A DNA stretch of 64,000 nucleotides, from sequence record LR597660; one strand, 5' to 3'. The number at the start of each line of letters is the position of its first letter. The first letter of the stretch is position 1. A program made the translations under genes and the position numbers. Source of the DNA: Escherichia phage T4_ev151. Below, in pieces: positions 1 through 24,969 of the stretch. The notes below the pieces were generated by a model. The model did no database searches and was not told where the DNA came from. It was given only the letters and a program-made list of their open reading frames with translations.

Positions 1-279
1 TCCTCTTTTGATATAGTATTTTTTCTCATCATATTCCATCCACAGTTCAACTAAAAGTTCTTTCTTATTTGTGCTGTTTATTAATTGACCTTTCTTTACA
101 TCACGAAATGGCTTGCCAAAAAGCCCAAATGTGATGGCTTCTAGCATAGTAGACTTACCACCGCCATTTCGTCCAGTAATAAGAGTTTTTTGAACCTTAT
201 CTAATTGAATGTCAATCCCATTTTGACCAACTGACATTATATTTTTATATTTTACTCTATTAAGTTTAAAATTCTTCAC
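1..279 (-). CDS. 46: Recombination exonuclease subunit gp46 (SbcC/Rad50-like), N-terminal fragment; gene continues past window start
   Basis: Minus-strand translation from 279 gives VKNFKLNRVKYKNIMSVGQNG...TGRNGGGKS (Walker A); start is GTG at 279-277 overlapping upstream stop, or ATG at 237. Confidence 0.85.
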   Translation of the reverse strand, partial: MKNFKLNRVKYKNIMSVGQNGIDIQLDKVQKTLITGRNGGGKSTMLEAITFGLFGKPFRDVKKGQLINSTNKKELLVELWMEYDEKKYYIKRG

Positions 280-491
280 AAAAGATTCCTTTTAATGTAT
301 CTTTTAGACCATTCTATCATATCATCATAATCTAAAAAGTATTCATCAAATTCAGCCATGCAAACAACGCCTTGTGCTGTTTTTGATGTAATATAAATTA
401 TTCCAACATATCTAGAATCTTCTTCGGTATAATCAATGTTTGCTATGAATTCATCATTAATGTCAAATGTCGAAAACTTCACAGTATGCAT
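276..491 (-). CDS. Hypothetical small protein (46.1-like position); start uncertain (track gives 539)
   Basis: ORF ending in TGA at 278-276; ATG at 491 or GTG at 482 avoids most overlap with upstream ORF. Confidence 0.4.
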   Translation of the reverse strand: MHTVKFSTFDINDEFIANIDYTEEDSRYVGIIYITSKTAQGVVCMAEFDEYFLDYDDMIEWSKRYIKRNLL

Positions 492-726
492 CCTTAATAC
501 AAGATACGGCCATATCTCGTAATGATTTAGGTGTGTCATTATCTAAAATGTTGAAGTTAAAGGATACAGCCCAGTCAGTGCAGACCGTAACCTTTTTAAT
601 ACAATTATCTTCAACCTCTAGCGGTTCAAACCAATATTCAATAATTTCTTTATGCCCAATATCATCTTTTACTTCGCATTCAAAATGCTGACTCATCATA
701 ACATTTTTAAATTCATCAAAAGTCAT
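463..726 (-). CDS. Hypothetical protein (46.2-like position)
   Basis: 87-aa ORF, ATG at 726 with AGAGG SD, ATGA overlap with gene 47 stop. Confidence 0.5.
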   Translation of the reverse strand: MTFDEFKNVMMSQHFECEVKDDIGHKEIIEYWFEPLEVEDNCIKKVTVCTDWAVSFNFNILDNDTPKSLRDMAVSCIKDAYCEVFDI

Positions 727-1742
727 TGTGTTGCCTCTACATATAGCTGATTTGCATATTGAATAAGTGCTTCACGGTCAGAATCGGTGATGTCTGGAAT
801 TGCATTAATGTATTCTTCCATCAACGTCTGAAGAGATTGAACTTCAACCTCTTCGCTGTCATCTGACTCGACAGAGTTATCAATCTTTGACACAACTCGT
901 AATGAATGCACAACTTTCTCTAGTTCAGATTCGAACTTCGTCAGATTTTTGTCTACTTCAGTTACTATAACACGTACTGATAGATTTGTAAAATCTTTAT
1001 AGTCAATTTTTCCTTTAAATGGATAATGAATTCTACGATGCCAGGTAGTATTATTTGGAATAAATTCCATTCGTTCTGTTTCTGTATCAAACATCCAGAA
1101 CCCACGAGGGTCATTCTCGTCACCTGCTGTTAGTGTCCATGGTGTCCCAATATATCTGACGTTAGCAGCCTCAGAAATAGTATGGAAGTGACCAGACCAC
1201 ACTTCTTTATAAGTCTTAAGGAAATCAGGTTCAAGACCATGAGATTTCATTCCTTTATAAAAATAAAATCCATTCAGTTCCCAGTGACCAACACAAAAAG
1301 AAGCAGATGAAGTTTTGATATGCTCAAGAATTTCACCAGTATTTTCTTCACACATCCAAGGAATTAAATCAATTAAACATCCTTCAAAATCTACTGTAGT
1401 AGGCTTATCATATACTTTAACATTAGGATATTTAGCCAAAAGCTCAGTAGAGGCATTTGGATGCATTACATTTTTATAGTGGAGATCGTGATTTCCTACA
1501 ATAGTATGTAATGTGATTCCAGCACCATCAAGCATTTGAACTATTTCACGGGCAAACTCCATAGTTTTATGCGTGATTGCTTTTCGCACATCAAAAATAT
1601 CACCATATTGAATCCATACAGTAATTCCATTTTTCTTAGAATATTCTATCGCTTGTTTAATTCCATCAATTTGAATACCGCGAATCCACTCATCATCAGC
1701 TTTAACGCCTAAATGCCAATCACCTAAATTTAAAATTTTCAT
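723..1742 (-). CDS. 47: Recombination endonuclease subunit gp47 (Mre11/SbcD-like)
   Basis: 339 aa; calcineurin-like phosphoesterase motifs GDWHLG, GDIFD, GNHD; T4 gene order. Confidence 0.95.
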   Translation of the reverse strand: MKILNLGDWHLGVKADDEWIRGIQIDGIKQAIEYSKKNGITVWIQYGDIFDVRKAITHKTMEFAREIVQMLDGAGITLHTIVGNHDLHYKNVMHPNASTELLAKYPNVKVYDKPTTVDFEGCLIDLIPWMCEENTGEILEHIKTSSASFCVGHWELNGFYFYKGMKSHGLEPDFLKTYKEVWSGHFHTISEAANVRYIGTPWTLTAGDENDPRGFWMFDTETERMEFIPNNTTWHRRIHYPFKGKIDYKDFTNLSVRVIVTEVDKNLTKFESELEKVVHSLRVVSKIDNSVESDDSEEVEVQSLQTLMEEYINAIPDITDSDREALIQYANQLYVEATQ

Positions 1743-1879
1743 ATATCAAGAACCGTCATTGAAATGCAAAATAAAATTATTGAAATAAACCCATCTGGTG
1801 TGCTAAAGAAACCAATCCAGCATGCTCTAGTGAATAGATAAAATGCAAGAAAAAGTATCACATATCCAAGAAATATCAT
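1739..1879 (-). CDS. Small hydrophobic protein (47.1 position), not in ORF track
   Basis: 46 codons MIFLGYVILFLAFYLFTRACWIGFFSTPDGFISIILFCISMTVLDI; GGAG SD 9 nt upstream; stop overlaps gene 47 ATG (ATGA). Confidence 0.45.
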   Translation of the reverse strand: MIFLGYVILFLAFYLFTRACWIGFFSTPDGFISIILFCISMTVLDI

Positions 1880-1902
1880 TATATCAAACTCCGTATAAAG
1901 CT

Positions 1903-1920
1903 AAAGGGCCGAAGCCCTTT
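1903..1920 (-). terminator. GGGC-UUCG-GCCC tetraloop hairpin just downstream of a-gt stop
   Basis: Inverted repeat aaagggc/gcccttt with CGAA/UUCG loop; U-rich flank is interrupted. Confidence 0.4.
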
Positions 1921-3121
1921 ATTTTGTAATAATGTCAAACTGTTCTTTAAAGCAGAAGCTTGAATCTTGATGCTGATACAAAAATTCATATGCTTTTTCT
2001 CGCTCACGGTCATAAAGAGCTCGGTCAGATGACAGTTCTTTAATACGTTCAAATGTTGATTCCATATCATTTTCATCAAACCAAATGATACCGCTATCAT
2101 GCGAGGTCAAAGGAGTATTATCAACACGGAATTTTAAATTTTCGCCAGTAGATTTCCAAAATACCGGAATTGTTCCACATGCACCAAGCTCGAGATGAGT
2201 ATATTCTAAAGAGCGCTGTAGATATTTTTTATCCAACTTACTCAGCTGATAACCAAATCCGGATTTACTCATGCGTTCAAGCATTTCGCTATTTACATAA
2301 CGGTCAAGAATTTGCGTTGGCAAATTAGGAGCAATTTTAATTTGGTCTACTTGATGAAGACGATAATACTCATATGGAATTCCTTTTTCTTTAATAGGAA
2401 TGAACGCTGGAGAACGTTCCAGACCTTCCATAATAGTACTTAGTCCTGCAGGTTTAAGATGTTTTTCGTGAAAATCAAACATCTGATAAAAACCTTTCCA
2501 TGTAGTCGTACGACCAATCCAACGGTTGATATTCATGTTAATTTCAGAAACATCTTTCCAGTAGGTTGATCGAACCTTCGCAATATCCATAGGAGGCTGA
2601 AAGTTATATACGGTCGGTGCTTCTTCAATATCATCAAACAGAGAAACAGTTTCCGGATACCATTCTTTCATCAGAACTTTATTAAAATCACCATTATCAG
2701 AATGGCTAAAAATAACATCAGCTCGACGAACAGTTTCTTCTAATCCCAAATTTCGACGCAAAGAAAGAGAAGAATGGTCATGTTGATAAACTACAACACG
2801 AACCGAAGGTTTAATGTTATCAATAATTTTTTTATAGTTATTAATAGTGTCTTCTTCAACCGAAGTAGCAGGAACTGAATTGATAATTAGAATATCACAA
2901 TCATTTACCAGCTTAAGTGTTTTATCATATTCTTTTGCCAATAAAACCGGAATTGAAAATGATTTATAATCATGCGCGCAATTACGAGTAAATGATTTAT
3001 CTTTAGCATAAACCAAAGTTACTTCATGACCATTCTTAATAAACCAATCACGTTGCTCAAGAGAAAATTTAGTTACACCACAACCTTCAAGACCTCGAGC
3101 CATAAAAATACATACTTTCAT
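1919..3121 (-). CDS. a-gt: DNA alpha-glucosyltransferase
   Basis: 400 aa, near-identical to recalled T4 AGT (MxxCIFMARGLEGCGVTKFSLEQRDWFIKNGHEVTLVYAKDKSF...). Confidence 0.95.
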   Translation of the reverse strand: MKVCIFMARGLEGCGVTKFSLEQRDWFIKNGHEVTLVYAKDKSFTRNCAHDYKSFSIPVLLAKEYDKTLKLVNDCDILIINSVPATSVEEDTINNYKKIIDNIKPSVRVVVYQHDHSSLSLRRNLGLEETVRRADVIFSHSDNGDFNKVLMKEWYPETVSLFDDIEEAPTVYNFQPPMDIAKVRSTYWKDVSEINMNINRWIGRTTTWKGFYQMFDFHEKHLKPAGLSTIMEGLERSPAFIPIKEKGIPYEYYRLHQVDQIKIAPNLPTQILDRYVNSEMLERMSKSGFGYQLSKLDKKYLQRSLEYTHLELGACGTIPVFWKSTGENLKFRVDNTPLTSHDSGIIWFDENDMESTFERIKELSSDRALYDREREKAYEFLYQHQDSSFCFKEQFDIITK

Positions 3122-3144
3122 TTAATATCCTCTTTGTTTTGGTT

Positions 3145-3169
3145 TATTTTACCAAAAATTTATAAAGCA
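3145..3169 (-). promoter_or_regulatory. Putative MotA-dependent middle promoter for a-gt
   Basis: Minus-strand TGCTTTA (MotA box) followed 11 nt later by TAAAAT, about 25 nt upstream of a-gt ATG. Confidence 0.35.
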
Positions 3170-3172
3170 ATA

Positions 3173-3190
3173 TAGGAGCCGAAGCTCCTA
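3173..3190 (-). terminator. UUCG-tetraloop hairpin (terminator-like)
   Basis: taggagc-cgaa-gctccta, 7-bp stem; contains the stop codon of the small ORF upstream. Confidence 0.35.
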
Positions 3191-3301
3191 TCCACATAAT
3201 ACGCCATACAGAGGCTCGTTAGAACTTTTAAATTTTATGCGCTTATATTTTATAGTTCCTTCTGCTTTAGCTTTATCATGAGACGCTTTAAAGAGTCTCA
3301 T
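3188..3301 (-). CDS. Small ORF (about 37 aa), not in ORF track
   Basis: ATG preceded by GAGGAA; MRLFKASHDKAKAEGTIKYKRIKFKSSNEPLYGVLCG; low confidence. Confidence 0.3.
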   Translation of the reverse strand: MRLFKASHDKAKAEGTIKYKRIKFKSSNEPLYGVLCG

Positions 3302-3364
3302 CATTTCCTCTTTAGAGGAACGAATTTTATTATAATCTATTTCAGAAGTCTGGGTGTTCATCTT

Positions 3365-3568
3365 TCACAGTTGCCACCATTTTTTGACTTGATAAGAATC
3401 AACCCACACTTTCATATTAGGGTCTGCTCTTACAATAGGAGGATTAACTTCTTTAATTGAACTATCATGGTATTCTTTTTCAGAAATTTTCACACAAAGA
3501 TGACCATTCAAAGATTCAGTAAATCCTGCATTAATTTTAAGACGCTTGAATTTTACGTGTGTAAGCAT
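3365..3568 (-). CDS. Hypothetical protein
   Basis: Track ORF trimmed to ATG at 3568 (track start 3571 is TTG); GAGGA SD. Confidence 0.5.
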   Translation of the reverse strand: MLTHVKFKRLKINAGFTESLNGHLCVKISEKEYHDSSIKEVNPPIVRADPNMKVWVDSYQVKKWWQL

Positions 3569-3854
3569 CAATCATATCCTCAATTTGCGATCTAGTAGTC
3601 TTCCAAAGAATACTGATGAGTTCATCGTTATATGGCTGTTTTAGAATATCCCGACTTTTCTTGATAGCATATTCGTATTGAGCAAAATTATTGTTTTCAG
3701 CTGCAATCTGAGCGTGCTTATAAAGACGATTCAGTTCGCGTTTGTTTTTAGACAATAACTTATTTGCTTTTCTTTCTGCTTCAAGACGGTTCTTTTCTTC
3801 AATAGAAGAAATAAGCTTTTCCACTTCATCATTAATTTCGGGTTTATCAGTCAT
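3537..3854 (-). CDS. Hypothetical coiled-coil protein
   Basis: 105-aa ORF, ATG start, charged helical composition. Confidence 0.55.
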   Translation of the reverse strand: MTDKPEINDEVEKLISSIEEKNRLEAERKANKLLSKNKRELNRLYKHAQIAAENNNFAQYEYAIKKSRDILKQPYNDELISILWKTTRSQIEDMIDAYTRKIQAS

Positions 3855-3855
3855 A

Positions 3856-4074
3856 TTATTTCTCTAATATAAAATAAAAATCATCATCTGTTAAATGATA
3901 CCGATAGTTTAATTCTACACCATTAGATTTAAAAGCGGTATCATACGGATTTTCTGGATCAATATCAATGTCAAGAGCTAAAACTTCCCTGAGATACATT
4001 TTAAGTAAATAGGGAATAGCTTCAACTTCAGGTATTTCTTCCAAGAATCCGGAGAGGTTAATCGTTAGCCTCAT
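3856..4074 (-). CDS. Hypothetical protein
   Basis: 72-aa ORF, ATG start, 17-nt overlap with gene 55 3' end. Confidence 0.5.
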
Positions 4075-4615
4075 ATAAAAAATCCAAACTAGGAGAATCG
4101 TCTACAACACTTTTCTTTTCAGCCCCCGGTGTTCTATAGGTTGATTCTTCGTAATGCGTCATTTTATCGTAGATGTCTTGAATAAAAGTTTCATCTACTA
4201 ACGCAACCATATCGTCGTCACGGCTGTCATAGACATTGTGAACGAAGTAACTATATTTCTTTGCAACTTCCTTACGTTCTTTTTTAATACGTTGGACGAA
4301 TGCATTAAAACAAGCTTGAGTTATATATGCATGTGGGTTTTTATATTTCGTTTCATCAAAATTATGAAGCCCCTTAATAGAAGCTTCTATACCATCTGCA
4401 ATCATTTCTTGTTTCCAAGACTGGGTGTATCCTGAAAAGTTGAAACGTTTAGATAAGCCTTCTGCAATAAGCATAATGGCTAATCCGATAGTATCATTCT
4501 GACGAACTACTTTATTTGGGTCTTTATTATTTGCTAATTCTGTTTTCCAATCAATAATAGCTTGTAAAAGCTCTTTATTGTTTACGTAATTATATTTAGG
4601 CTTAGTTTCTGACAT
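4058..4615 (-). CDS. 55: Late sigma factor gp55
   Basis: Begins [25 protein letters not shown] from ATG at 4615 (track start 4621 is GTG); 185 aa as T4 gp55; AGAGGTGA SD. Confidence 0.95.
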
Positions 4616-4693
4616 TTTCACCTCTTAGCTCAATTCATAGATCTATTATATCATAATATTTGAAGATCTATCTTAAAGCATAGAGGATATCAG

Positions 4694-4963
4694 TTATCTA
4701 AGTAAACAGTATGCTTGGAATACTTTTTCCATCATCTTTTTAAATTCATGAATATCTATATAATGACTAGTTAAATCAGCATGATATAAAAAGTCTAAAA
4801 ACTTTTCATGTGTATTAACATATTCACTTTCATTTAATTCAGAAACATGGCTTTCCCAATATCCAACACCAGTCTTATTTGGGAAAAATGAAATTTTCAT
4901 GTATTGGTCAACATAGAAAATGCCATAATTTTCAATAGTAATAGAAATATTAATAAATTTCAT
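4694..4963 (-). CDS. Hypothetical protein
   Basis: 89-aa ORF, ATG start, ATGA overlap with upstream gene. Confidence 0.5.
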   Translation of the reverse strand: MKFINISITIENYGIFYVDQYMKISFFPNKTGVGYWESHVSELNESEYVNTHEKFLDFLYHADLTSHYIDIHEFKKMMEKVFQAYCLLR

Positions 4964-5175
4964 ACATTCATCAACTTAGCCGCTTCAAGAGCTGCATCTA
5001 GTGAATCAAATTGGTCAACATATTCAATCAATTCGCCATAATTGGCATATAACCACCATTGGCTAAATTCATACTCAAGGATGAATCCGTTTCCTTCAAT
5101 TTGAGTTAAACCAATGCCATTTGTATTTACTTCATATCCAGCAAGACGTAAATCGTTAATAAGAGCTTCGTTCAT
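4960..5175 (-). CDS. Hypothetical protein
   Basis: 71-aa ORF, ATG start. Confidence 0.5.
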   Translation of the reverse strand: MNEALINDLRLAGYEVNTNGIGLTQIEGNGFILEYEFSQWWLYANYGELIEYVDQFDSLDAALEAAKLMNV

Positions 5176-5177
5176 AA

Positions 5178-5504
5178 TTATACCTTAGTAATTTTCAGGT
5201 CTGCAAATTTTTTCTTACGTTGATTTTTCATGCGACGAATAGTTTTATCGGAAATTTCATGCTTTTGATAAGCTTTAGATTCTACACCAAAAGCTTTAAC
5301 ATCAAATTCTGACAAGATATATTGAACCAGCAATTCACGGATAGTATTGCGTCCAATCTTCTGATCATTCTGTTTCATCGTCTGATGAAGCTCTTTTTCC
5401 CATTTATCCAAAATTTGAGGAGTTACAATATCGCCTTTTTCTAGCAAAGAAACTACTTTATCATATGCGTAAGAATTAATGACGTTTTTAATTTGAATAG
5501 TCAT
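5178..5504 (-). CDS. Hypothetical protein
   Basis: 108-aa ORF, ATG start with GAGGATAATG upstream. Confidence 0.55.
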   Translation of the reverse strand: MTIQIKNVINSYAYDKVVSLLEKGDIVTPQILDKWEKELHQTMKQNDQKIGRNTIRELLVQYILSEFDVKAFGVESKAYQKHEISDKTIRRMKNQRKKKFADLKITKV

Positions 5505-5539
5505 ACATTATCCTCAATTACGTTAAAATTTTATTATCC

Positions 5540-5556
5540 AAAAAGGGCCGAAGCCC
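5540..5556 (-). terminator. Rho-independent terminator (UUCG hairpin plus U5)
   Basis: Minus RNA reads GGGC-UUCG-GCCC-UUUUU right after the stop at 5557. Confidence 0.6.
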
Positions 5557-5757
5557 TTAGCTAAACTTTTTGGCACCCTTCCAGCCTTCATACATCATTG
5601 CGACTGATATTAATATTGCTCCTGAGCAACTTGAATATTTGTGGTTCCAAAACCAGTTTAGAAAAACTTCGTCATCAATACCTTGGGCTATCATATTTTC
5701 AAAGAACTGACGACGAGCTTCGGCAATTCGCTGCGATAATTTAGATTCAGGATTCAT
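5557..5757 (-). CDS. Hypothetical protein
   Basis: 66-aa ORF, ATG start. Confidence 0.5.
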   Translation of the reverse strand: MNPESKLSQRIAEARRQFFENMIAQGIDDEVFLNWFWNHKYSSCSGAILISVAMMYEGWKGAKKFS

Positions 5758-5889
5758 TTAAATTTCCCAATTACCATTTTCATCAATAAATTTAATCCAG
5801 TCATTTACTGACCACTTAGTTGTATCGCCTTTTGGAGTAGCATTTAAAGTATATAGCCCTTGCTTAAAAAGCATTCGTTTGATATTCAT
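5758..5889 (-). CDS. Hypothetical small protein (start trimmed from track 5973)
   Basis: ATG at 5889 with GAGGAAAAT SD; removes overlap with upstream ORF. Confidence 0.4.
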   Translation of the reverse strand: MNIKRMLFKQGLYTLNATPKGDTTKWSVNDWIKFIDENGNWEI

Positions 5890-5896
5890 ATTTTCC

Positions 5897-6190
5897 TCAG
5901 CTGTAACGATAACACTCGTTTGATTTGCGTTTAGCAACTCGTTGAGAAATATTATAATCAAAATCATCGTCAATGTAAACTGATTTTTTCAACTTTCTTA
6001 CTTCACCACGTAATTGGTGGTTCAATTCATTCTTAACCTCTGAATCAACACCTCGCATACGTCGCCATTTATCTGAGCGAAAAATGTTTTCAACCATATC
6101 TTTATGACTTACACCGTCTGGAGCTTTACGCTTTCCGAAATAGTCATAATCACGCACTTTTAAGTCTTTACGACGATACGTTTTACCCAT
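5897..6190 (-). CDS. Hypothetical basic protein
   Basis: Track ORF trimmed to ATG 6190 (MGKTYRRKDLKVRDY...); Arg/Lys-rich. Confidence 0.45.
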   Translation of the reverse strand: MGKTYRRKDLKVRDYDYFGKRKAPDGVSHKDMVENIFRSDKWRRMRGVDSEVKNELNHQLRGEVRKLKKSVYIDDDFDYNISQRVAKRKSNECYRYS

Positions 6191-6246
6191 GGAGTTTAAT
6201 TTCCTTAGCAACTGAACTAAATGTAGCACGATCGCAAATCATGCGT

Positions 6247-6366
6247 TTATGTAACTTGAGTAATAATATAGCAAACTTCAAAACTATTTACATGAGTAAC
6301 ACGAACAGCATTACCATTAATAAAATAATATTGTCCCTTTTTAATTTCTTTATCAACCACAACCAT
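6247..6366 (-). CDS. Small ORF (39 aa), not in ORF track
   Basis: ATG with GAGGAA SD; MVVVDKEIKKGQYYFINGNAVRVTHVNSFEVCYIITQVT; just downstream of an early promoter. Confidence 0.35.
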   Translation of the reverse strand: MVVVDKEIKKGQYYFINGNAVRVTHVNSFEVCYIITQVT

Positions 6367-6406
6367 ATTAATTCCTCAAAGGCAATTCATATGTTAATAA
6401 TACCAC

Positions 6407-6436
6407 AGTTTGAACTTGTTGTAAACAACTTTGTGA
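6407..6436 (-). promoter_or_regulatory. T4-type early promoter
   Basis: Minus strand GTTTACA, 18-nt spacer, TGGTATTAT extended -10. Confidence 0.5.
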
Positions 6437-6500
6437 AAAATATTTTAGGGAATGATAAGAAAGGAACGATAGCTTAGAATGGTAATATACAGAATGTGAG

Positions 6501-6521
6501 AAAGAAAGGCCCAGAGGGCCC
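6501..6521 (-). terminator. Rho-independent terminator after nrdH
   Basis: Minus RNA GGGCC-UCU-GGGCC hairpin followed by UUUCUUU. Confidence 0.55.
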
Positions 6522-6524
6522 GTC

Positions 6525-6833
6525 TTAATCTTCTATGATATCTCTATCATATCCAAGTGAAATGAGAGTTTCTTTGAAGTGTTTAATGTTCTTTTGTCTA
6601 GAATCATTAATGAAAATGACTGGATAACGAATGTTAAGAGATGTGAATCCAGCGCGTTTAGCAAGAGATACAATCAGCGGACGATCATACTCAATCTTAC
6701 CATTATTTGTAAGAACTTTATAGAAAGTAAAAGGAGCATTAAGCTCCTTTAGAAGTTTTGTAACTGATTGACATCCAGGACAACGACCTACTTCATCTGG
6801 AATTCCATAGACTTCAATCTTATTTTGTTTCAC
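6525..6833 (-). CDS. nrdH: Glutaredoxin-like protein NrdH
   Basis: 102 aa with CPGC redox motif; T4 synteny next to nrdG/nrdD; apparent GTG start with AAGGAA SD. Confidence 0.85.
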   Translation of the reverse strand: MKQNKIEVYGIPDEVGRCPGCQSVTKLLKELNAPFTFYKVLTNNGKIEYDRPLIVSLAKRAGFTSLNIRYPVIFINDSRQKNIKHFKETLISLGYDRDIIED

Positions 6834-6835
6834 AA

Positions 6836-7048
6836 CTATTCCTTACTAAGAGCAGCATTCAGCTTGTTAGTAATTTTATCCAGACGCTCATTGAACTCAC
6901 TGGAAGATAAGCCCTTTTCTGGAGAAATTAAACTAATCACGAAAAATATAGCAATAAAAGGAATAAGGAAAATAGCTCCAACTGCCATAAACAGAAAGAA
7001 TGTTACAGTTGTAAGAAAATCAGCCAAACCTTTACGAAATTTATACAT
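6836..7048 (-). CDS. Small membrane protein (one TM helix)
   Basis: 70-aa ORF, ATG start, hydrophobic core FLFMAVGAIFLIPFIAIFFVISLI. Confidence 0.55.
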   Translation of the reverse strand: MYKFRKGLADFLTTVTFFLFMAVGAIFLIPFIAIFFVISLISPEKGLSSSEFNERLDKITNKLNAALSKE

Positions 7049-7163
7049 ATTTTACCCTTAATTGATTAACCAAGCATTGATAAGCACTAAACTATACTGC
7101 GAATAAAATTCTGGACCAAAATGAAAAATCATATCATTTATAGTATCCATAATGTAATTCAAT

Positions 7164-7634
7164 TTAATCATGTTTCCACACCCCATCGGTATTTGACCAA
7201 AGTCGCTGATTATCTGATCCTCGCCACAGCTTTTTAGTCGGAAGATTTTTCTCATACTTCCCATCAATAATAACATCAACATATTTAAGCATTTCTAGTT
7301 GTTTAATATCTTCAAACTTATATCCTGTCCACAACCAAATGCTTTTATTGGGATAAAGATTTTTTACTGTTTGAACAATGCAATGAATAACATCTCGATT
7401 GTCAGGATAGAGAGGGTCTCCTCCAGTTATAGTCAATCCTTCTATATAATCATTATTCAAACATTCAATTAATTGCTCTAGTGTTTCGCCAGTGAATGGA
7501 ATACCATTTCTAGCATTCCATGTTGATTTATTATAACACCCTTCACATTTATGCAAACAACCTGTAACGAAAAGAACGACCCTGCAACCAGGGCCATTCA
7601 CAAAATCGCAAGGATAAAATCTATCATAATTCAT
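7164..7634 (-). CDS. nrdG: Anaerobic ribonucleotide reductase activating protein (radical SAM)
   Basis: 156 aa; CxxxCxxC cluster motif GCLHKCEGCYNK; ATGA coupling to nrdD. Confidence 0.9.
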   Translation of the reverse strand: MNYDRFYPCDFVNGPGCRVVLFVTGCLHKCEGCYNKSTWNARNGIPFTGETLEQLIECLNNDYIEGLTITGGDPLYPDNRDVIHCIVQTVKNLYPNKSIWLWTGYKFEDIKQLEMLKYVDVIIDGKYEKNLPTKKLWRGSDNQRLWSNTDGVWKHD

Positions 7635-9448
7635 TGGTGTTTAACCCTATGCATGATTTCTTTGTTTTTACCGAGATTAAATCCGCGTTCGTTCGGATTT
7701 CCCAAATAACCACATGTTCTTCTTATGGTATTCATCTTTTTAGGATCAGTTTCTCCACAAATAGAACAAACAAATCCGTTTTCAGTAGGAGTCATTTCAT
7801 GGGTACTTCCACATGTAAAACATTTATCTACCGGCATGTTAACACCAAAATAATCTAAATGTTGTGCAGCATAATCCCATACGGCCTCAAGGCCTTTTAA
7901 GTTATTTTTCATATCAGGAAGTTCAACATAAGAAATGTGACCACCTGTCGCAATGAAATGATATGGCGCTTCACGAGAAATCTTTTCAAACGGAGTAATA
8001 TTTTCTTCTACTGAAACATGGAAACTGTTAGTGTACCAACCTTTATCGGTAACATCTTTTACGCTTCCATATTTTTCTGTATCTAGTTTACAGAAGCGAT
8101 AACAAAGGTTTTCAGCAGGAGTCGAATATAAACTAAAAGCAAATCCGGTTCTTTCAGTCCACTGTTTAAGATGAGCATTCATTTTAGTTAAAATTTCCTG
8201 TCCAATATCACGACCGACAAGAATATTCAATTCGTGAATACCAATGTATCCTAAAGACACTGAACTTCTGCCGTTTTTAAATAACTCAATTATATCGTCA
8301 TCAGGTTTAAGACGAACCCCGAATGCACCTTCTTGGTAAAGAATAGGAGCAACAGTCGCTTTAACTCCTTTTAAGGAACTAATTCTACACATCAAAGCTT
8401 CAAAACATAAATCCATTCGTTCATTGAACAATTCAACAAATTTCTGTTCATTGAACTGTGTTCCAATATAAGAATCTAACGCGATGCGAGGAAGATTCAG
8501 TGTTACAACACCAAGATTATTACGTCCATCAAGAATTTCATTACCAGTCGAATCTTTCCATACGCTCAAGAAACTACGGCAACCCATTGGAGAAACAGGA
8601 ACAGATGAACCAGTGATAGCTTTATTGTTCTTAGCTGAAATAATATCAGGATACATCCTTTTGCTTGCACACTCTAGAGCAAGCTGCTTAATATCATAGT
8701 TCGGATCGTCTTTGTAAAGATTAACGCCTTCTTCGACGAACATAACAAGCTTAGGAAAAATAGGAGTTATCCCATCACGACCGAGACCTTTAATACGATT
8801 TTTCAGAATTGCTTTCTGAATCATTCGTTCAGTCCAGTCAGTTCCCGTACCAAATGTAATTGTTACAAAAGGAGTTTGTCCGTTTGAACTAAAGAGAGTA
8901 TTTACTTCATATTCATAAGCTTGGAATGCATCGTATACGTCTTTTTCTGTTTTAGATTGAGCATAATTCAACGCATCGGCGATTTGCCATTTTTCTGCAT
9001 CCTCAATATGTTTTGCATAGGTGCGTTTAACATAAGGAGAAAGTACTTTATCTACATTAGCAAAAGTCGTTCCGCCATATTGGTGAGAAGCAACCTGTGC
9101 AGTAATTTGTGCCATAATTGCAGTAGCAACACCGATTGATTTAGGAGTTTCAATCTGCGCATTACCAAGCTTAAATCCGTTCTCAAGCATTCCTTTTAAA
9201 TCTACTAAACAGCAATTAGTAAATGGAAGAGCAGGGGAATAATCAATATCATGGAAATGGATAATTCCGCTTTCATGCGCTTTCATAATAAAAGACGGGA
9301 CCATATTTTTGGCAATGTGTTTAGACACAATACCAGCCATAAGGTCCCGTTGAGTTGGAAAAACACGAGAATCTTTATTAGCATTCTCGTTTAAAAGGTC
9401 TTTATTAGTTTTATGAATCAATCCTTCAATTTCTTTTTCAATTGTCAT
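7631..9448 (-). CDS. nrdD: Anaerobic ribonucleoside-triphosphate reductase (glycyl radical), uninterrupted
   Basis: 605 aa continuous ORF; C-terminal glycyl-radical motif RRTCGYLG; C-terminal Cys cluster. Confidence 0.95.
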   Translation of the reverse strand: MTIEKEIEGLIHKTNKDLLNENANKDSRVFPTQRDLMAGIVSKHIAKNMVPSFIMKAHESGIIHFHDIDYSPALPFTNCCLVDLKGMLENGFKLGNAQIETPKSIGVATAIMAQITAQVASHQYGGTTFANVDKVLSPYVKRTYAKHIEDAEKWQIADALNYAQSKTEKDVYDAFQAYEYEVNTLFSSNGQTPFVTITFGTGTDWTERMIQKAILKNRIKGLGRDGITPIFPKLVMFVEEGVNLYKDDPNYDIKQLALECASKRMYPDIISAKNNKAITGSSVPVSPMGCRSFLSVWKDSTGNEILDGRNNLGVVTLNLPRIALDSYIGTQFNEQKFVELFNERMDLCFEALMCRISSLKGVKATVAPILYQEGAFGVRLKPDDDIIELFKNGRSSVSLGYIGIHELNILVGRDIGQEILTKMNAHLKQWTERTGFAFSLYSTPAENLCYRFCKLDTEKYGSVKDVTDKGWYTNSFHVSVEENITPFEKISREAPYHFIATGGHISYVELPDMKNNLKGLEAVWDYAAQHLDYFGVNMPVDKCFTCGSTHEMTPTENGFVCSICGETDPKKMNTIRRTCGYLGNPNERGFNLGKNKEIMHRVKHQ

Positions 9449-24404: not shown

Positions 24405-24590
24405 TTAAAGCATATTCACATAAGCTATTAATTCGTTTTCTTTCTTATCAAACCGATCAGCAAATTCTTCTTGCTGTTCTGGAGATAGCGGGCCGTATTC
24501 ATCATAAAAGGTGTTTGCTTCTGTATGCTCATCTAGAAGTTCATGGATAAGCTCAAACAATTTATCTTTTTGTTCTTTACTCAGACTCAT
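24405..24590 (-). CDS. Hypothetical acidic small protein (tk.1 position)
   Basis: 61-aa ORF, ATG start. Confidence 0.5.
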   Translation of the reverse strand: MSLSKEQKDKLFELIHELLDEHTEANTFYDEYGPLSPEQQEEFADRFDKKENELIAYVNML

Positions 24591-24760
24591 ATATTAATTT
24601 CCAGGAGTTTTAAAATAATTCGCTTTTGCTTAAATATTTCCATAGTTAAATGACCAGTATCTTTTTGACCGATTCCAATGGCAAAACCTTTATTGACAGC
24701 GAGTTCAATTAAATTATCAAGCTCACGTAACACTTCATACTGTAACTCAAAACTATTCAT
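24587..24760 (-). CDS. Small ORF (57 aa), not in ORF track
   Basis: MNSFELQYEVLRELDNLIELAVNKGFAIGIGQKD...; ATGA overlaps on both sides. Confidence 0.4.
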   Translation of the reverse strand: MNSFELQYEVLRELDNLIELAVNKGFAIGIGQKDTGHLTMEIFKQKRIILKLLEINI

Positions 24761-24969
24761 TTCGGTTTACCTTCTTTAACGAAATCTGGATAAGGATAAA
24801 ATCCCGAATAAAATCCTTCACCTTTATGATTGATGCATCCTTTATTAGAACAATAGCACCAATAATCGAAATCACAAGCCATTTCATCGTTGCATAAAGC
24901 AAAAACAACTGGCCATTTACACTTTTCACAATGGGCATTTTTAAGAATACTAGTTTGGCTCATAACCAT
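24757..24969 (-). CDS. Cys-rich small protein
   Basis: 70 aa with several CxxC/CxC pairs. Confidence 0.5.
   Translation of the reverse strand: MVMSQTSILKNAHCEKCKWPVVFALCNDEMACDFDYWCYCSNKGCINHKGEGFYSGFYPYPDFVKEGKPK

Follow-up and report, generated by a model that had tools for sequence, protein, structure and literature searches.

Known small genes beneath a 60-codon cutoff in a T4-like phage: gene 47.1 and its putative coupling to the gene 47 nuclease subunit

Introduction

Immediately upstream of gene 47 in Escherichia phage T4_ev151, a frame of only 46 codons runs into the start codon of the nuclease gene. Is this frame a gene, is it a new one, and does its position reflect a link to gene 47? 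It lies at 1739-1879 on the minus strand of the 64,000-nucleotide stretch of record LR597660 analysed here (the window). A first-pass annotation singled it out together with three further frames, at 3188-3301, 6247-6366 and 24587-24760, as small genes, several of them translationally coupled, that had been missed and that might act in host takeover. All four open reading frames (ORFs) are present in the sequence at these ends, on the minus strand, and they had been overlooked because the first-stage ORF track began at 60 codons.

Length offers little guidance here. The first 7 kb of the window are AT-rich and hold 70 listed ORFs of at least 25 aa, and we estimate the chance of 46 stop-free codons at the composition of the window at about 3%. 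ORF size alone is therefore within chance, so the case for small genes must rest on conservation.

Relatives with which to assess conservation are numerous. A search with the DNA at 1400-2300 gives 554 matching phage records, the top match reaching 99.7% identity, and nearly all of these are Tequatrovirus (T4-like) phages from Escherichia, Shigella and Yersinia. The window reads in the same direction as the T4 reference (NC_000866), with early genes on the minus strand. Its local gene order, which runs from 47 through the 46-aa ORF, a-gt, several small ORFs and 55 towards nrdH, mirrors that of T4: 47, 47.1, a-gt, (mobB), a-gt.2 to a-gt.5, 55, 55.1 to 55.6 and nrdH. Judged by sequence comparison, all four frames correspond to known genes and none is new: they represent 47.1, a-gt.2, a broken copy of 55.6, and RB32ORF110c.

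Identity of the frame upstream of gene 47

The minus-strand frame at 1739-1879 translates as MIFLGYVILFLAFYLFTRACWIGFFSTPDGFISIILFCISMTVLDI. All 46 of its 46 residues are identical to those of the T4 gene 47.1 product (gp47.1; NP_813808.1), a record labelled "hypothetical predicted membrane protein", and residues 1-46 align with positions 2-47 of the 47-position profile phrog_6693 (E=1.5e-31). In T4, as in the window, the gene lies between a-gt and gene 47. The two copies differ at four nucleotides, all of them silent, which leaves the protein without any difference.

The frame had been described as hydrophobic, preceded by a Shine-Dalgarno site and joined to gene 47 through an ATGA overlap, and each of these properties can be read from the DNA. 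It begins with ATG, its product has a GRAVY of 1.73, a GGAG motif stands 9 nt before the ATG (1889..1892, minus strand), and its stop codon shares the four bases ATGA with the start of gene 47 (1739..1742, minus strand). Further upstream, directly at the a-gt stop codon, is a stable hairpin, UAAAGGGC-UUCG-GCCCUUUA (1902..1921, minus strand). The overlap, the hairpin and the Shine-Dalgarno site are all found in T4 as well.

Scans for transcription signals yielded little else in this region. Promoter-like sites, sought with a consensus, were no commoner than in shuffled sequences, and the sole terminator-like site was the UUCG hairpin itself, read on the opposite strand. The possibility that the locus encodes a structured RNA instead of a protein was considered and rejected. 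Folding of 1700-1930 on the minus strand was no better than that of shuffles (z = 0.55), with only the UUCG hairpin stable; this hairpin is the sole pairing kept in the centroid structure and is identical in T4 and phage L14. A search of positions 1-8000 against Rfam returned no match. We consider it very probable that 1739-1879 is T4 gene 47.1, already annotated and genuinely protein-coding, and that this identity, together with the putative coupling and the predicted membrane hairpin described below, is the best explanation of the locus.

The three other small frames

The frame first called at 3188-3301 is the 3' two-thirds (37 aa) of a longer gene. An AGAGGA motif resembling a Shine-Dalgarno site does precede the ATG at 3301, as had been claimed, but that ATG is an internal methionine codon and the ORF extends to an ATG at 3361. 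The full ORF (3188..3361, minus strand) is a 57-aa allele of a-gt.2, a DUF5486 protein. It matches Pfam PF17588 over positions 1-53 of 53 (128.5 bits; gathering cutoff 27) and phrog_2140 over positions 1-57 of 57. T4, U115, JS10, MX01 and the longer Winklervirus homologues all conserve the protein sequence encoded upstream of the ATG at 3301, and the 37-aa version is therefore an under-call. A second product started internally at AUGAUG is nevertheless conceivable, since AGAGGA precedes that site.

As in T4, a-gt.2 lies downstream of a-gt.3, but its start differs between phages. The T4 and U115 proteins (63 and 59 aa) have their starts within the end of a-gt.3, upstream of the position used here, whereas one C that T4 and U115 lack shifts the start in the window to 3361, 3 nt past the a-gt.3 stop. 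A sequencing error was ruled out as the source of this base: at least 116 phage records match the start region with 100% identity along 71 nt, and the allele is a natural variant. A further difference from T4 is that the homing-endonuclease gene mobB, which T4 carries between a-gt.2 and a-gt, is absent from the window.

The frame at 6247-6366 (minus strand) has a different status. It is a 39-codon ORF with GAGGA upstream, as first described, yet it is the remnant of a frameshifted 55.6 and no small gene in itself. T4 55.6 (NP_049685.1, 60 aa, PHROG 2283) has homology in the window to both its N-terminal ~35 and its C-terminal 25 residues, and its position between 55.5 and nrdH is kept. Alignment with T4, PP01 and UTI-E4 places a one-base insertion, an extra T, near 6263 (TATATTATTACTC against TATATTATACTC), a base that T4 does not have. 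The 39-aa ORF thus consists of the first ~35 codons of 55.6 followed by out-of-frame codons, and it covers only positions 1-36 of 60 in phrog_2283. The 3' part, at 6183-6262 (minus strand) in a reading frame that covers 6183-6281, is out of frame with the start and ends in ...LKLHKRMICDRATFSSVAKEIKLHG and a stop codon, which matches the C-terminus of T4 gp55.6. A full-length 55.6 frame is lacking. When the extra T was sought in 175 related records, it was present in none (0/175), the best match being 70/71 with a gap. The insertion reflects a frameshift mutation of recent origin or else an error in the sequencing.

The last frame, at 24587-24760 (minus strand), is a 57-aa ORF whose ATGA overlaps with both neighbours are confirmed in the sequence. 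Residues 1-57 match positions 1-58 of the 58-position profile phrog_3452 (E=1.6e-33). It had been placed within the tk.1-tk.4 chain, an assignment that does not hold: the ORF is a homologue of RB32ORF110c, which is not among T4 tk.1-tk.4 and has no counterpart at the T4 position, where T4 has tk.1 instead. Matches to RB32ORF110c come from 438 phage records, among them RB32 and RB51, where it is annotated; T2 and T6 also match at the protein level. The RB51 copy is likewise 57 aa long and is 98% identical to that in the window. RB51 also shares the gene order tk.4-tk.3-RB32ORF111c-RB32ORF110c-tk.2-tk and the pattern of overlapping stop and start codons.

Three of the four frames can therefore be regarded as real, coupled small genes, the frameshift remnant at 6247-6366 being the exception. 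This supports the placement of the small genes within chains of translationally overlapping early genes. They were missed in the limited sense that the 60-codon track did not contain them; records of T4, JS10 and RB51 already annotate them.

Coding sequence or chance frame

Given the abundance of short ORFs in the first 7 kb, one might still argue that the four are untranslated and stand open by chance in AT-rich DNA between genes. They rise above that background through conservation across hundreds of genomes of related phages and through matches to PHROG and Pfam families. Reading frame and protein sequence are conserved for 47.1, a-gt.2 and RB32ORF110c, as the first-pass annotation had asked of related phages, and all four ORFs match a PHROG, a-gt.2 also matching Pfam. 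Only 6247-6366 is abnormal, its frame being broken, yet it too is what is left of a real gene.

Published time courses of T4 infection point the same way for two of the genes. Both a-gt.2 and 55.6 have early RNA, and their proteins were detected, as late and early, respectively (PMC9697503, supplementary files 4 and 6). The RNA of T4 47.1 was also classed as early (PMC9697503, supplementary file 4), whereas its protein was not detected in the proteome time course and has class NA (PMC9697503 supplement). Taken alone, this last result would suit an untranslated frame. A hydrophobic peptide of 46 aa with a single Arg is, for these very reasons, a poor target for mass spectrometry. Overall, we regard it as extremely unlikely that these frames arose by chance.

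Distribution and selection of gene 47.1

Using tblastn, 47.1 was found in 601 phage records, all with at least 80% query coverage. Homologues were seen in four named genera (Tequatro-, Dhaka-, Winkler- and Gelderlandvirus) and the unclassified phage Mizar. When 5.8 billion proteins were searched with a gp47.1 profile, no more than 11 clusters were recovered, every one from T4-like phages. The gene is thus confined to some of the T4-like phages of enterobacteria. Gene 47, which is present in about 2480 records, is far commoner, indicating that the peptide is accessory and no general partner of the nuclease. Searches for more distant relatives were negative: gp47.1 has no Pfam family, and homology searching yielded no functional lead.

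Within this subset the peptide is under purifying selection. Twenty-four alignment columns are invariant among the homologues, including every position except [IV] of a core that reads RACW[IV]GFFSTPDGFIS. In Nei-Gojobori comparisons between genera, pS reaches 0.6-0.8, which is near saturation, while pN remains at 0.14-0.25. The resulting dN/dS of 0.06-0.3 can be set against about 0.04-0.08 for gene 47. Despite this conservation, the gene is often absent from annotations, as roughly half of the sampled records that match 47.1 have gene 47 alone annotated beneath the match.

Linkage and putative coupling to gene 47

Gene 47 (723..1742, minus strand) encodes an Mre11/SbcD-like nuclease subunit and lacks an independent Shine-Dalgarno site, its anti-Shine-Dalgarno (anti-SD) duplex amounting to only -2.5 kcal/mol. 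The corresponding duplex of 47.1 is -6.1 kcal/mol in the window and -6.0 to -9.2 kcal/mol in the homologues. In Winklervirus, Dhakavirus, Gelderlandvirus and Mizar, the homologues are 46-47 aa long, have a good Shine-Dalgarno site and overlap gene 47 by ATGA. This overlap was seen in six phages besides the one studied here, covering the four named genera and Mizar. The gene on the other side is far less constant, and may be a-gt, a-gt.2 or another.

The start of gene 47 itself was compared in 14 phages, seven with 47.1 and seven without, the latter comprising members of Jiaodavirus, Krischvirus, Pseudotevenvirus, Hadassahvirus and Cinqassovirus as well as Shewanella phage Thanatos-2 and Vibrio phage D486. 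The gene 47 anti-SD duplex lies between -1.7 and -3.0 kcal/mol in all seven carriers and between -3.9 and -9.3 kcal/mol in all seven phages without 47.1, a contrast that may reflect very few evolutionary events, since the 47.1-bearing phages are interrelated. In the phages without 47.1, gene 47 is preceded by GAGGT, AAGGAG or AGGA-type sites at normal spacing. Among the sampled carriers, then, the ATGA linkage is fixed and the Shine-Dalgarno site of gene 47 is absent.

No analogous small hydrophobic ORF was found upstream of gene 47 in phages that do not carry 47.1. In five of them the upstream gap measures about 30-90 nt. Aeromonas phage Ah1 has a gap of 206 nt with stops in all three forward frames, and in Vibrio phage D486 a larger gene overlaps the start of gene 47.

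Termination-reinitiation at overlapping AUGA stop/start codons is common in the early gene chains of T4. Known pairs of this type combine a four-base overlap, a downstream gene without a Shine-Dalgarno site and a good upstream Shine-Dalgarno site, all of which are seen in 47.1 and 47. The stop/start overlap and the lack of an independent ribosome-binding site downstream, by which coupled pairs are recognised, suggest that gene 47 is coupled to 47.1 through termination and reinitiation. Ribosomes would load at the good Shine-Dalgarno site of 47.1, terminate at the ATGA, which is a putative termination-reinitiation site, and reinitiate on gene 47. Since gene 47 has no site of its own, reinitiation would mean that 47.1 also sets the translation of gp47.

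Where 47.1/47 departs from known AUGA-coupled pairs is in the knock-down data, which give no clear support for strict dependence. The data of the T4 CRISPRi-ART screen are noisy (PMC11879866, supplementary file 15): guides at the 47.1 start scored -0.69 +/- 0.98, a 'Not Fit' call, against 0.83 ('Semi-Fit') for gene 47, and 'Not Fit' was also the call for gene 46. If gp47 depended strictly on translation of 47.1, similar scores would be predicted for the two genes; the scores differ, with the same caveat about noise.

An arrangement of this kind might also arise if 47.1 were a mere translational leader that delivers ribosomes to gene 47, its peptide having no function. The conserved overlap, the missing gene 47 Shine-Dalgarno site in every sampled carrier and the lack of a fitness effect on 47.1 knock-down would all fit such a role. 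So would phage L14, in which a pair of deletions (-1 and -2) scrambles the conserved core and restores the frame, which leaves the ATGA as the end of the ORF. This case comes from the L14 record alone, though, and one of the two deletions falls in a T run, which makes a sequencing error plausible. Selection on the peptide also argues against a leader: it is comparable to that on gene 47, and the 16-residue core is nearly invariant across four genera whose synonymous sites are saturated, whereas a pure leader would not conserve its peptide. A functionless leader is, in our view, very unlikely, and a genuine protein-coding 47.1 with putative coupling to gene 47 is preferred.

Predicted membrane topology and possible roles

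What, then, might the conserved peptide do? Its hydrophobic stretches lie at about residues 1-16 and 31-44. An AlphaFold2 model built with 12 sequences (database homologues) predicts helices at 2-22 and 28-44 joined by a GFFST turn, with a mean pLDDT of 86, and the annotation of the 47.1 homologue in phage Mizar records two transmembrane domains. Taken together, these features suggest that gp47.1 forms a two-helix hairpin inserted in the inner membrane. When the model was searched against PDB folds, nothing meaningful was returned (best E=8.3), and a search of the available literature for a function of gp47.1 found no paper.

The first-pass annotation had suggested host takeover for small genes of this kind, a role that receives no backing from homology or knock-down. 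None of the four ORFs matches a family of known function: searches found no Pfam family with a known function, all four PHROGs are classed as 'unknown function', and gp47.1 has no PDB fold match. In addition, a-gt.2, like 47.1, was 'Not Fit' in T4 CRISPRi-ART (PMC11879866, supplementary file 15).

For gp47.1 specifically, a role as an early host-takeover or envelope factor independent of gp47 could take the form of membrane perturbation, superinfection exclusion or a counter to membrane-based defence. Early RNA, the predicted membrane hairpin and a restricted, accessory-like distribution among T4-like phages are in keeping with such a factor, and 47.1 can be spared in a laboratory host, a frequent property of accessory host-interaction genes. 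Against it, the peptide resembles no characterised factor, and its constant association with gene 47, whatever the upstream neighbour, points to a tie with that gene and not to an independent module. We see this role as unlikely.

A more speculative idea is that gp47.1 tethers or modulates the gp46/gp47 nuclease at the membrane. In its fuller form, gp47.1 would partner the Mre11/Rad50-type gp46/gp47 as a small membrane protein specific to its lineage, made in fixed proportion to gp47 through ATGA coupling and anchoring or restraining the nuclease at the inner membrane. The sole motivation for the tether is the title of a 1981 paper by Mickelson and Wiberg, as cited in PMC3016280. As a specific proposal, this partnership is quite unlikely.

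Implications

As a discovery, the set of four frames carries little weight; the main lesson is that real T4 genes go unseen under a cutoff of 60 codons. Many deposited T4-like genomes omit 47.1, and the conservation statistics justify calling it systematically. The frameshift private to the 55.6 copy in the window is useful for annotation or for sequence quality control.

For the biology of these phages, the loss of the gene 47 Shine-Dalgarno site where 47.1 is present offers a testable hypothesis on how expression of a recombination nuclease subunit is set. The same contrast between phages with and without 47.1 raises the possibility that a tiny, predicted membrane peptide and an Mre11-like nuclease are functionally connected.

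Gene content of the tk region

In the tk region, the window carries a small ORF on the minus strand at 24757-24969, between tk.3 and the 57-aa ORF RB32ORF110c. It encodes a 70-aa cysteine-rich product (CEKC...CNDEMAC...CYC...GC) that may be a small zinc-binding protein. By position, this ORF corresponds to RB32ORF111c of phage RB51, where it is annotated as similar to RB49ORF089c; in T4 this locus holds no gene. The surrounding gene complement also differs between the window and T4. T4 encodes two small acidic paralogues, tk.1 and tk.2 (4347-4717 of the T4 locus compared here, L003), while the window has a single tk.2-like copy adjoining tk (24405-24590), with the tk.1 slot filled by the pair RB32ORF110c and RB32ORF111c.

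The a-gt/a-gt.2 neighbourhood

A second difference from T4 lies next to a-gt. In T4, the homing-endonuclease gene mobB is located between a-gt and a-gt.2 (4386-5180 of locus L001). The window lacks mobB at the corresponding position (3122-3187), and a-gt.2 immediately precedes a-gt. In Winklervirus phages, the a-gt.2-like domain makes up the C-terminal part of a protein of 86 residues whose N-terminal half is cysteine-rich. In Erwinia phage Gravdalen, where this gene lies at 373-633 of the locus compared (L004), the small ORF adjoining it (207-392) is labelled 'head maturation protease'. This label is probably wrong and seems to have been carried over from the annotation of phrog_17354, a family of 62 residues.

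Genes 55.4 and 55.6

Alignment of gene 55.6 (6183-6366) with its counterparts in phages T4, PP01 and UTI-E4 identified a one-base insertion, an extra T near position 6263. The extra T was absent from these three phages and from all 175 matching phage records. The C-terminal part of the window's 55.6, although out of frame, is nearly identical to that of T4, indicating that the event is either recent or artefactual; the extra T is a frameshift mutation private to this genome or else an error of assembly.

A further annotated T4 gene under the 60-aa cutoff, missing from the small ORFs listed in the first-pass annotation, is present on the minus strand at 5758-5889. Its 43-aa product is a gp55.4 homologue (42 of 43 residues identical), and the gene lies inside a longer, TTG-started ORF of the mechanical ORF list.

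Upstream region and reading frame of 47.1

The 46-aa gene 47.1 is preceded on the minus strand by a hairpin, UAAAGGGC-UUCG-GCCCUUUA (1902-1921), that has an 8-bp stem and a UUCG tetraloop and contains the a-gt stop codon. In T4, hairpins of the C(UUCG)G type are a well-known element of intercistronic regions. The hairpin seen in the window has the same sequence in T4 and in Escherichia phage L14, and in phage JB75 it carries a terminator annotation. Its probable role is to stabilise the mRNA or to cause partial termination upstream of 47.1. Further upstream, about 70 nt from 47.1, the 3' end of a-gt contains TGCTTTA (1948-1954, minus strand), which resembles a MotA box, the -30 element of T4 middle promoters; no convincing -10 hexamer was seen at the expected spacing from it.

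The L14 copy of 47.1 (701-838 of locus L008) has lost one nucleotide (-1) within a T run and two more (-2) 60 nt further on. Together, these deletions scramble the conserved core of 47.1 and restore the frame, with the ORF still ending at the ATGA shared with gene 47. Either they come from sequencing error, or they hint that it matters to preserve the coupled frame.
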